From the NCBI GenBank assembly GCA_944388035.1, contig CALXHF010000006.1:15128-79127 (forward strand): 64,000 nt of DNA. Reading direction: 5' to 3'. Position numbers and translations under genes: made by a program. Positions within the stretch are counted from its first letter, which is position 1; each line of letters opens with the position of its first letter. This stretch comes from an uncultured Clostridia bacterium (GTDB taxonomy: Bacteria > Bacillota > Clostridia > TANB77 > CAG-508). Below, one piece after another: positions 63,023 through 63,332 of the stretch. The notes under the pieces are model-generated. The model was not told the DNA's origin, ran no database searches, and was given only the letters and a program-made list of their open reading frames with translations.

Positions 63023-63332
63023 TGGTGGGCAGGGAAGGATTCGAACCTTCGTACTCAAATGAGAACAGATTTCTTACTACTATAGTTTTCACTACCAATT
63101 ACTTGTTTGTAGTCTGGACTTTTTCTTTATCTTAAATAAGATACTAGGTGTAAAGTCTCTACACTCAGGAATTGTATTCCTTAGCTCGAGATTACCATCA
63201 GCATTACCTGTTAAGGCTTCCTCGAATTAGCCTAGTTATCATCATATAATCACTTATATGAGCTGCAAATTTAGGTTTTGGAATTAACCAAAGACTACAG
63301 TCTGCCGCCTTTAGCCACTCGGCCACCTACCC
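63023..63332 (-). tRNA. tRNA-Tyr (GUA), interrupted in the anticodon loop by a 224-nt intron
   Basis: 5' exon GGGTAGGTGGCCGAGTGGCTAAAGGCGGCAGACTGT. 3' exon AAATCTGTTCTCATTTGAGTACGAAGGTTCGAATCCTTCCCTGCCCACCA. Joined, they give an 86-nt class II tRNA with loop CTGTAAA. Confidence 0.8.
63073..63296 (-). ncRNA. Group I (IC3-like) intron within tRNA-Tyr
   Basis: The 5' exon ends in U and the intron ends in G. It contains GUGUAGAGACU, which matches (from my memory) the conserved core segment of the Azoarcus tRNA-Ile and plastid/cyanobacterial tRNA-Leu introns. Several internal hairpins. Confidence 0.65.

Follow-up and report, generated by a model that had tools for sequence, protein, structure and literature searches.

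A tRNA-Tyr(GUA) gene of an uncultured Clostridia bacterium interrupted by a group I intron of the IC3 type

Classical bacterial tRNA introns interrupt the genes for tRNA-Leu(UAA), tRNA-fMet, tRNA-Ile(CAU) and tRNA-Arg(CCU). The number of bacterial tRNA group I intron settings has been widened to 21 by a bioinformatic catalogue without splicing tests (Williams 2020, bioRxiv 10.1101/2020.01.27.920355), and the seed alignment of that catalogue (gpI.sto) holds a tRNA-Tyr intron, Mba143.Tyr.4Ug, with the P1 pairing CUGUAA/UUGCAG. In the same alignment, the Tyr and Asp position-4 seeds have nearly the same P1 (CUGU/GCAG) and the Asn.4Ug seed has a related one (UGUA), which suggests that one guide sequence could serve several tRNAs with GUN anticodons and may explain how introns move between them. 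tRNA-Tyr is absent from a 2014 review and from the group I intron passage of the tRNAscan-SE 2.0 paper, and 'Tyr' does not occur in the main text of a 2025 intron-database paper. Apart from reports of 'group I introns' in papers on cyanobacterial and chloroplast tRNA-Tyr, the literature searched gave no experimentally studied tRNA-Tyr group I intron, and no splicing assay or transcript data for any tRNA-Tyr intron.

We analyzed a stretch of 64,000 nucleotides from an uncultured Clostridia bacterium, hereafter the window, in which an earlier reading based on the letters alone had pointed to a tRNA-Tyr(GUA) gene with a 224-nt insert in its anticodon loop. ARAGORN with intron detection (ARAGORN -i) returned tRNA-Tyr(gta) at c[63023,63332] with a 224-nt intron ('actgt-Intron-aaatc'), so that the coordinates and lengths given by that reading were exact. 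The gene is of class II, lies on the minus strand (63332-63023) and is split between U35 and A36; as had been claimed, the joined exons yield a normal 86-nt tRNA-Tyr with the anticodon loop CUGUAAA (ARAGORN -i), and the U at the end of the upstream exon and the G at the end of the insert are both read in the sequence. Default ARAGORN and Rfam at its gathering threshold missed this gene in the 64-kb window, where they reported only a tRNA-Leu (14321-14404) and a tRNA-Met (63344-63420). The parts of the gene are the following.

63023 to 63332, minus strand: whole split tRNA-Tyr(GUA) gene, 86 nt of exons plus the 224-nt intron, CCA encoded (ARAGORN -i and sequence)
63297 to 63332, minus strand: 5' exon, 36 nt, with the acceptor 5' strand, D arm, 5' anticodon stem and C32 U33 G34 U35 (sequence and ARAGORN -i); in full GGGTAGGTGGCCGAGTGGCTAAAGGCGGCAGACTGT, its 3' end reading GGCAGACTGT
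63073 to 63296, minus strand: group I intron of the IC3 type, 224 nt, without an ORF (Rfam RF00028, covariation, MFE fold); first bases AGTCTTTGG, last bases GTAGTAAG
63073, minus strand: omega-G, the final intron nucleotide, with the 3' splice site between 63073 and 63072
63023 to 63072, minus strand: 3' exon, 50 nt, with A36 A37 A38, the 3' anticodon stem, long variable arm, T arm, acceptor 3' strand and ACCA; opens with AAATCTGT, complete sequence AAATCTGTTCTCATTTGAGTACGAAGGTTCGAATCCTTCCCTGCCCACCA

The window is a piece of bacterial chromosome, with XerD-like, RNase H, HIGH_NTase1 and DprA genes as neighbours, and the split gene appears to belong to a short transcription unit.

63448 to 63476, minus strand: putative promoter of the sigma-70 type upstream of tRNA-Met, TTGACA-17-TATACT, with 11 of 12 consensus matches
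63344 to 63420, minus strand: tRNA-Met(CAU), 11 nt upstream of tRNA-Tyr (default ARAGORN and Rfam)
62977 to 63015, minus strand: terminator-like hairpin CCUAUAUCUU / AAGAUAUAGG with an 11-nt loop and then a U run, directly after the tRNA-Tyr CCA (read from the sequence)

Both the promoter and the tRNA-Met gene ahead of tRNA-Tyr are conserved, and the tRNA-Met-tRNA-Tyr pairing was seen in 52 intron-bearing tRNA calls among the genome loci listed. A strict terminator scan did not call the hairpin at 62977-63015.

By its host, its site and its U-1 and omega-G, the window intron belongs to the Tyr.4Ug class. As described in Williams 2020, this class shares with the window the tRNA-Tyr GUA host, position 4 of the anticodon loop, the arrangement CUGU/...g/AAA, the U-1 and omega-G, the P1 pairing CUGU/GCAG and the P1-P9 layout. 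The sequence-only reading had implied that tRNA-Tyr was a new host, a view that gives way before a catalogued class with the same site and guide (10.1101/2020.01.27.920355). This kind of tRNA-Tyr intron is thus already catalogued, bioinformatically only, and the window holds a well-supported member of a Firmicute lineage of it.

A genome scan with a pattern of the P7 core, the omega-G with the start of the 3' exon, and the T loop, run on one genome per GTDB species, gave at least 119 loci (numbered with the prefix L), about 108 of which are complete tRNA-Tyr genes split between GACTGT and AAATC by introns of 181-628 nt. A G stands before AAATC in all of these approximately 108 genes among the matches listed, a G that the scan pattern itself demanded. 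ARAGORN -i called tRNA-Tyr at 97 of the at least 119 listed loci, the others being mis-spliced calls, contig ends (which cut a few of the loci) and about six chance matches beside intronless tRNA-Ser genes (L131, L149, L192, L199, L205), which were set aside. On loci from CPR and Omnitrophota the program sometimes chose another splice point and the labels Ser, Phe or Asp, and there we retained the U-1/omega-G assignment. The recurrence of the split gene in these genomes, together with the Intron_gpI match described below, shows that it is not a chance pattern. Among the matches listed, most hosts are Clostridia MAGs from gut and rumen (Clostridium sp. CAG:567, CAG:575 and CAG:354 among them), and the others are Bacilli and Erysipelotrichaceae MAGs, Patescibacteria, Omnitrophota, Planctomycetia, Anaerolineales and Gammaproteobacteria MAGs; the sequence-only reading knew of no example in a Clostridia-like Firmicute, and the scan found the split gene to be abundant in Clostridia MAGs. 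The closest locus among the matches listed (L184, an uncultured Clostridia MAG with the prefix CALYBF01) is 93.5% identical to the window over 5.9 kb, and its intron is 98.8% identical to that of the window, which marks the window as chromosomal DNA of an uncultured gut Clostridia bacterium.

Three sequence lineages occupy this one tRNA-Tyr site among the matches listed, a subdivision drawn in this analysis and not a criterion of Williams 2020: lineage A in gut Clostridia and Bacilli, which includes the window, lineage B in Omnitrophota and Planctomycetia, and lineage C of the CPR type. The Mba143.Tyr.4Ug seed falls in lineage C with the CPR-type core GAUAACGGUG...GCGCCGUAGAGACU, whereas the window intron has AAUUCGAGG...GAGUGUAGAGACUUUA and an extra stem, P1a; the two are approximately 77% identical over 175 alignable positions. 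The lineages also differ with respect to the Rfam cut-off, which was passed by 4 of 4 loci of lineage B (90-107 bits) and by 0 of 16 loci tested of lineage A, and this low score of lineage A is the reason why the tRNA-Tyr gene goes unannotated.

The Rfam search for Intron_gpI (RF00028), a check that the sequence-only reading had proposed, was run as a sensitive scan of 62900-63450 (a 551-nt search) and matched the entire model (positions 1-253) on the minus strand at 63289-63092, with 48.8 bits and an E-value of 2e-11, 1.2 bits under the curated gathering cut-off of 50 bits and with no match at the gathering threshold. To describe the fold, the P1-P9 helices were assigned by hand and then scored on an alignment (A1) of 75 distinct introns of the Clostridia/Bacilli type. 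Standard pairs filled 97.4% of 5153 cells, compared with 34-41% when the partners were slid by 1-3 columns; compensatory changes on both sides were seen in 39 of 70 pairs, and in a shuffle control 0 of 500 shuffles equalled any observed measure. All eight pairs of P2 co-vary, as do most pairs of P3, P6a, P8, P9a and P9b, and the U-1·G wobble, the P7 pairs and J6/7 are invariant in all 75 homologues. Additionally, an unconstrained MFE fold found P2, P4, P5, P6, P8, P9a and P9b independently (z = -2.1). The IC3-like core that the sequence-only reading had recognized by GUGUAGAGACU is therefore borne out by a full-length covariance-model match and by P1-P9 covariation in 75 homologues. The elements of the intron are listed from 5' to 3'.

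63295 to 63300, minus strand: P1 5' strand, exon CUGU (U35 = U-1, at 63297) plus intron A1 G2
63270 to 63292, minus strand: P1a, an extension of the P1 hairpin, UUUGGUU / AACC-U-AAA, with compensatory changes GG/CC to GA/UC to GC/GC
63263 to 63270, minus strand: internal guide sequence, AUUU followed by GCAG (read from the sequence; TTGCAG conserved in A1)
63242 to 63261, minus strand: P2 hairpin, 8 bp with the GNRA loop GUGA, 8 of 8 pairs changed on both sides
63231 to 63236, minus strand: P3 5' strand ACUAGG, compensatory change in 4 of 6 pairs
63163 to 63225, minus strand: P4-P5-P5a-P6-P6a domain, supported by covariation, with a compensated G-C to A-U swap in P4
63153 to 63164, minus strand: J6/7 and P7 5' strand, GUGUAGAGACUU, invariant in 75 of 75, a motif also present in the IC3 seeds of Williams 2020
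63143 to 63148, minus strand: P3 3' strand CCUAGU, closing the P3/P7 pseudoknot (covariation)
63129 to 63142, minus strand: P8 hairpin AUCUU-AUUU-AAGAU, compensatory change in 4 of 5 pairs
63116 to 63128, minus strand: J8/7 (AAAGAAA) and P7 3' strand (AAGUCC), P7 pairs invariant in 75 of 75
63076 to 63113, minus strand: P9 (ACUAC/GUAGU) around P9a (CAA-GUAA-UUG) and P9b (GUAGU-GAAA-ACUAU), supported by covariation

In P1, exon CUGU and intron AG pair with UUGCAG, so that GCAG (63266-63263) complements exon C32-U35; the 5' splice site lies between 63297 and 63296, U35 pairs with the G at intron nucleotide 31 in 75 of 75 homologues, and the neighbouring G-C and U-A pairs are invariant. By analogy with other group I introns, AUUU (63270-63267) may pair with the AAAU of the 3' exon as P10, and the tertiary contacts of the intron are likewise predicted by analogy. 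P1 uses only bases of the anticodon loop, and the tRNA body can therefore stay folded while it forms, as it does in other tRNA introns. Two alternative pairings were given up: the P1a register UUUGG/CCAAA, since covariation prefers UUUGGUU/AACC-U-AAA, and a sixth P4 pair, U79·G120, which clashes with P6. The P4-P6a domain includes a P5 internal loop, CCUUAAC/GAUGG, that resembles a tetraloop receptor, as well as GCUAAGG; the CUAAGG element of the sequence-only reading is indeed present, at 63184-63179 within P6/P6a. P7 is formed by G(A)GACUU/AAGUCC, the J6/7-P7 motif GUGUAGAGACU stands at 63164-63154, and the segment of J6/7 and the P7 5' strand shows two hallmarks of a guanosine-binding site, a bulged A and a G-C pair. 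The P2 loop is GNRA in most homologues and the P9b GAAA loop is invariant in the alignment, and after P9 follows AAG, ending in omega-G.

The assignment to IC3, made by inspecting the intron beside the IC3 seeds from tRNA genes in Williams 2020 and in alignment A1, relies on the compact core without P5abc, P2, the subsidiary P9 hairpins, the GNRA loops L2 and L9 and the J6/7-P7 motif. When compared to the classical IC3 tRNA introns (Azoarcus tRNA-Ile(CAU), cyanobacterial and plastid tRNA-Leu(UAA), cyanobacterial tRNA-fMet and Agrobacterium tRNA-Arg), the window intron shares a size of about 200-250 nt, the anticodon-loop location, a P1 formed by loop nucleotides, the lack of P5abc, the GNRA loops L2 and L9, the same J6/7-P7 sequence and the P7' strand AGUCC. 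It differs from them in its isoacceptor, its loop position between U35 and A36, its extended P1 hairpin, its AT-richness and its score below the Rfam cut-off, a cut-off which the Omnitrophota tRNA-Tyr introns pass at 90-107 bits.

With respect to the consensus, the window intron differs at only 4 of 188 columns conserved in at least 90% of the homologues, and two of these four are the compensated P4 pair (G-C to A-U). Covariation between species extends to the exons, in their acceptor, T and variable stems, with acceptor stems such as GGGTAGG/CCTGCCC, GGACAGG/CCTGTCC and GGGCAGA/TCTGCCC and T stems such as GAAGG/CCTTC and GATGG/CCATC; of 75 type-A relatives compared, 45 have the very 5' exon of the window. 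The pairing and covariation, the few departures from the consensus, the covariation of the exons and the promoter all speak for a tRNA gene in working order that contains an active ribozyme, whose catalysis is predicted. We thus regard the locus as very probably a functional tRNA-Tyr(GUA) gene, cut at U35/A36 by an intact, endonuclease-less group I intron of the IC3 type.

Following the known chemistry of group I introns, tRNA-Met and tRNA-Tyr would be transcribed from one promoter, and in the precursor the tRNA body would fold while C32-U35 pair with the guide GCAG; in the resulting P1, U35 would stand opposite G as a U·G wobble. The core from P3 to P9, with its P3/P7 pseudoknot and with the GNRA loops L2 and L9b as braces, would bind free guanosine in P7, and this guanosine would attack the bond after U35. 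The omega-G (63073) would next take the guanosine site while P10 holds the 3' exon AAAU, and the 3'-OH of U35 would attack the bond after omega-G, joining the exons into the 86-nt tRNA-Tyr, to be completed by RNase P and 3' trimming.

The role of the splicing in the cell depends on whether other tRNA-Tyr genes exist. To look for intronless genes, metagenomes were scanned for the spliced junction GGCTAAAGGCGGCAGACTGTAAATCTGTTCTC, a 32-nt exon junction, and at least 120 gut metagenome contigs carried an intronless tRNA-Tyr with the junction exon sequence of the window. Intronless genes are therefore present in the clade, and the genome studied could also have one, in which case splicing would be dispensable and the intron a neutral passenger. 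We consider this unlikely for several reasons. The intronless genes occur in the same arrangement, as tRNA-Met(CAU) precedes 79 of the 119 found by ARAGORN among the metagenome loci listed, and they are syntenic where the flanks align: L272 is 79% identical over window positions 57384-62949, and L356 is 75% identical with an alignment that ends at 63072, exactly the exon boundary. Among the matches listed, no intronless contig was more than 79% identical to the window, and at 75-79% identity these carriers look like orthologues of other species and not like second copies. Furthermore, there is no intronless tRNA-Tyr within the 64-kb window or in any listed 8-kb genome locus, and an intron fold under such strong purifying selection fits poorly with a dispensable copy. 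Since intron-bearing relatives are similarly diverged from the window (L222 and L239, 78-80%), the comparison indicates that the intron is present or absent at an orthologous locus, that is, a presence/absence polymorphism of the tRNA-Met-tRNA-Tyr locus across the clade as far as the alignments tell.

A second alternative, which we judge to be quite improbable, is that the intron is real and removed, but that it needs a protein chaperone or cofactor in the cell instead of acting as an autonomous ribozyme, as is the case for several organellar group I introns that require proteins such as CYT-18. The window intron has a low GC content (34%), its P5 and P8 are short and its folding z-score is modest, so that unaided folding in vivo is not guaranteed, and it has no maturase-like ORF of its own. 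However, the small IC3 tRNA introns of Azoarcus and Anabaena self-splice efficiently in vitro, and the peripheral contacts of those introns (GNRA L2, GAAA L9b and the receptor-like loop in P5) are all conserved here. Lastly, a pseudogene, in which a decayed, non-splicing insert has inactivated tRNA-Tyr, would suit a locus left unannotated by default tRNA finders and the curated Rfam threshold, but it is hardly credible given undamaged exons with the same sequence as in close relatives, a core with every invariant position kept and its single helix change compensated, and a structure conserved with covariation across 75 homologues.

No ORF was found in the 224-nt intron of the window. Among the loci listed, the P1 loop harbours an ORF in three long introns (L189, 602 nt, 277-878; L206, 628 nt, 2940-3567; and L128, 625 nt), the one of L128 being broken by a frameshift or stop. 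The ORFs of L189 and L206 match the PD-(D/E)XK family PF11645 of Pfam (E-values of 1.5e-16 and 5e-23, respectively), and that of L206 also matches the structure 2OST of I-Ssp6803I, the endonuclease of the Synechocystis tRNA-fMet intron (6e-5). The position of this ORF in the three introns is that of the P1a stem in the window intron, and L226 and L227 carry an endonuclease-less form of the L189 intron. The window intron may thus be the remnant of a mobile element whose relatives keep a PD-(D/E)XK homing endonuclease in the P1 loop, and the lack of a homing gene makes vertical inheritance in its own lineage probable. The likeness to the Synechocystis tRNA-fMet intron lies in the PF11645 ORF within the introns of L189, L206 and L128; unlike that intron, the window has no ORF, and in its tRNA-Tyr relatives the ORF stands in the P1 loop and cleavage of the target is a prediction.

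Split tRNA-Tyr genes are also found in viral sequences. Phage introns known in 2014 were all in protein-coding genes (2014 review, PMC3984707), and group I introns are frequent in gut jumbo phages (PMC12880540). Two large viral contigs of IMG/VR, IMGVR_UViG_3300033463_000040 (117 kb) and IMGVR_UViG_3300028797_000096 (231 kb), contain an identical tRNA-Tyr(GUA) gene in which a 180-nt group I intron occupies the insertion site seen in the window (L362:9847-10026, minus strand; L365:2977-3156, plus strand). This intron scores 64.8 bits in Rfam, its spliced host is called tRNA-Tyr, and it shares 88% identity with the window intron across 174 aligned nt. The phage copies have the site in common with the window, but the latter is bacterial chromosome, and at 180 nt they have no P1a, unlike the 224-nt intron of the window. 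In L362 the split gene lies beside an array of about 15 tRNAs with HNH endonuclease and polynucleotide-kinase ORFs, and the shorter locus L365 has four tRNA genes. A BLAST search of the locus against GenBank phages gave only matches of 58-94 nt, which correspond to the conserved 3' core of unrelated introns, and a loose viral scan with AGAGACTN{65,95}GAAATCYG listed 120 chance matches (L001-L120), which were discarded.

Current understanding of bacterial group I introns is not overturned by these data, and the locus links the Tyr.4Ug class to homing endonucleases of the I-Ssp6803I type and to phage tRNA arrays. Because default ARAGORN and the Rfam gathering score (0 of 16 loci of lineage A) miss the gene, many gut Clostridia MAGs will seem to be without tRNA-Tyr, an apparent absence that affects completeness estimates and codon-usage inferences. 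Should the split gene be the sole tRNA-Tyr gene, translation in these bacteria would depend on RNA self-splicing. As a tentative proposal, possible rather than probable in our view, lineage A could form a distinct branch of tRNA-Tyr introns that has gone undescribed so far and that systematically escapes default tRNA finders and the curated Rfam threshold; it may split the only tRNA-Tyr of many abundant gut species, making the ribozyme essential for translation there, and it may be exchanged by way of large gut phages with the same intron in their own tRNA-Tyr.

Other split tRNA genes were seen in the loci collected. In Bacilli MAGs (L226:5543-6570 and L227:960-1987), a tRNA-Thr(tgt) with an insert of 625-627 nt adjoins the tRNA-Tyr, whose intron is of 234-238 nt, and in CPR MAGs (L124:2870-3844 and L204:6061-7291) a second split tRNA adjoins the tRNA-Tyr. 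One Omnitrophota MAG (prefix JAZDFW01) has a split tRNA-Tyr on each of two contigs (L152 and L193). Viral contigs showed a tRNA-Leu(taa) with an apparent 191-nt intron (L361:5102-5378), a tRNA with an apparent 674-nt insert (L364:1496-2255) and a tRNA-Ser-like call with an apparent 702-nt insert (L362:6517-7309) that has an HNH endonuclease ORF at 6734-7210.

With regard to the protein-coding neighbours, the HIGH_NTase1 protein (447 aa, PF05636, E-value of 4e-134) is encoded at window positions 61603-62946 on the plus strand, convergent with the tRNA-Met-tRNA-Tyr operon; its listed GTG start (61603) is probably too far upstream, the true ATG being near MGKVLGIV, and TmcAL, the tRNA-Met cytidine acetate ligase, is a member of its family. 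At 63473-63943 on the minus strand, the tRNA promoter is directly preceded by the C-terminal part of DprA (DNA_processg_A, PF02481), an ORF that covers only profile positions 96-211 of 212, so that its true start is probably farther upstream, near or beyond the window end.
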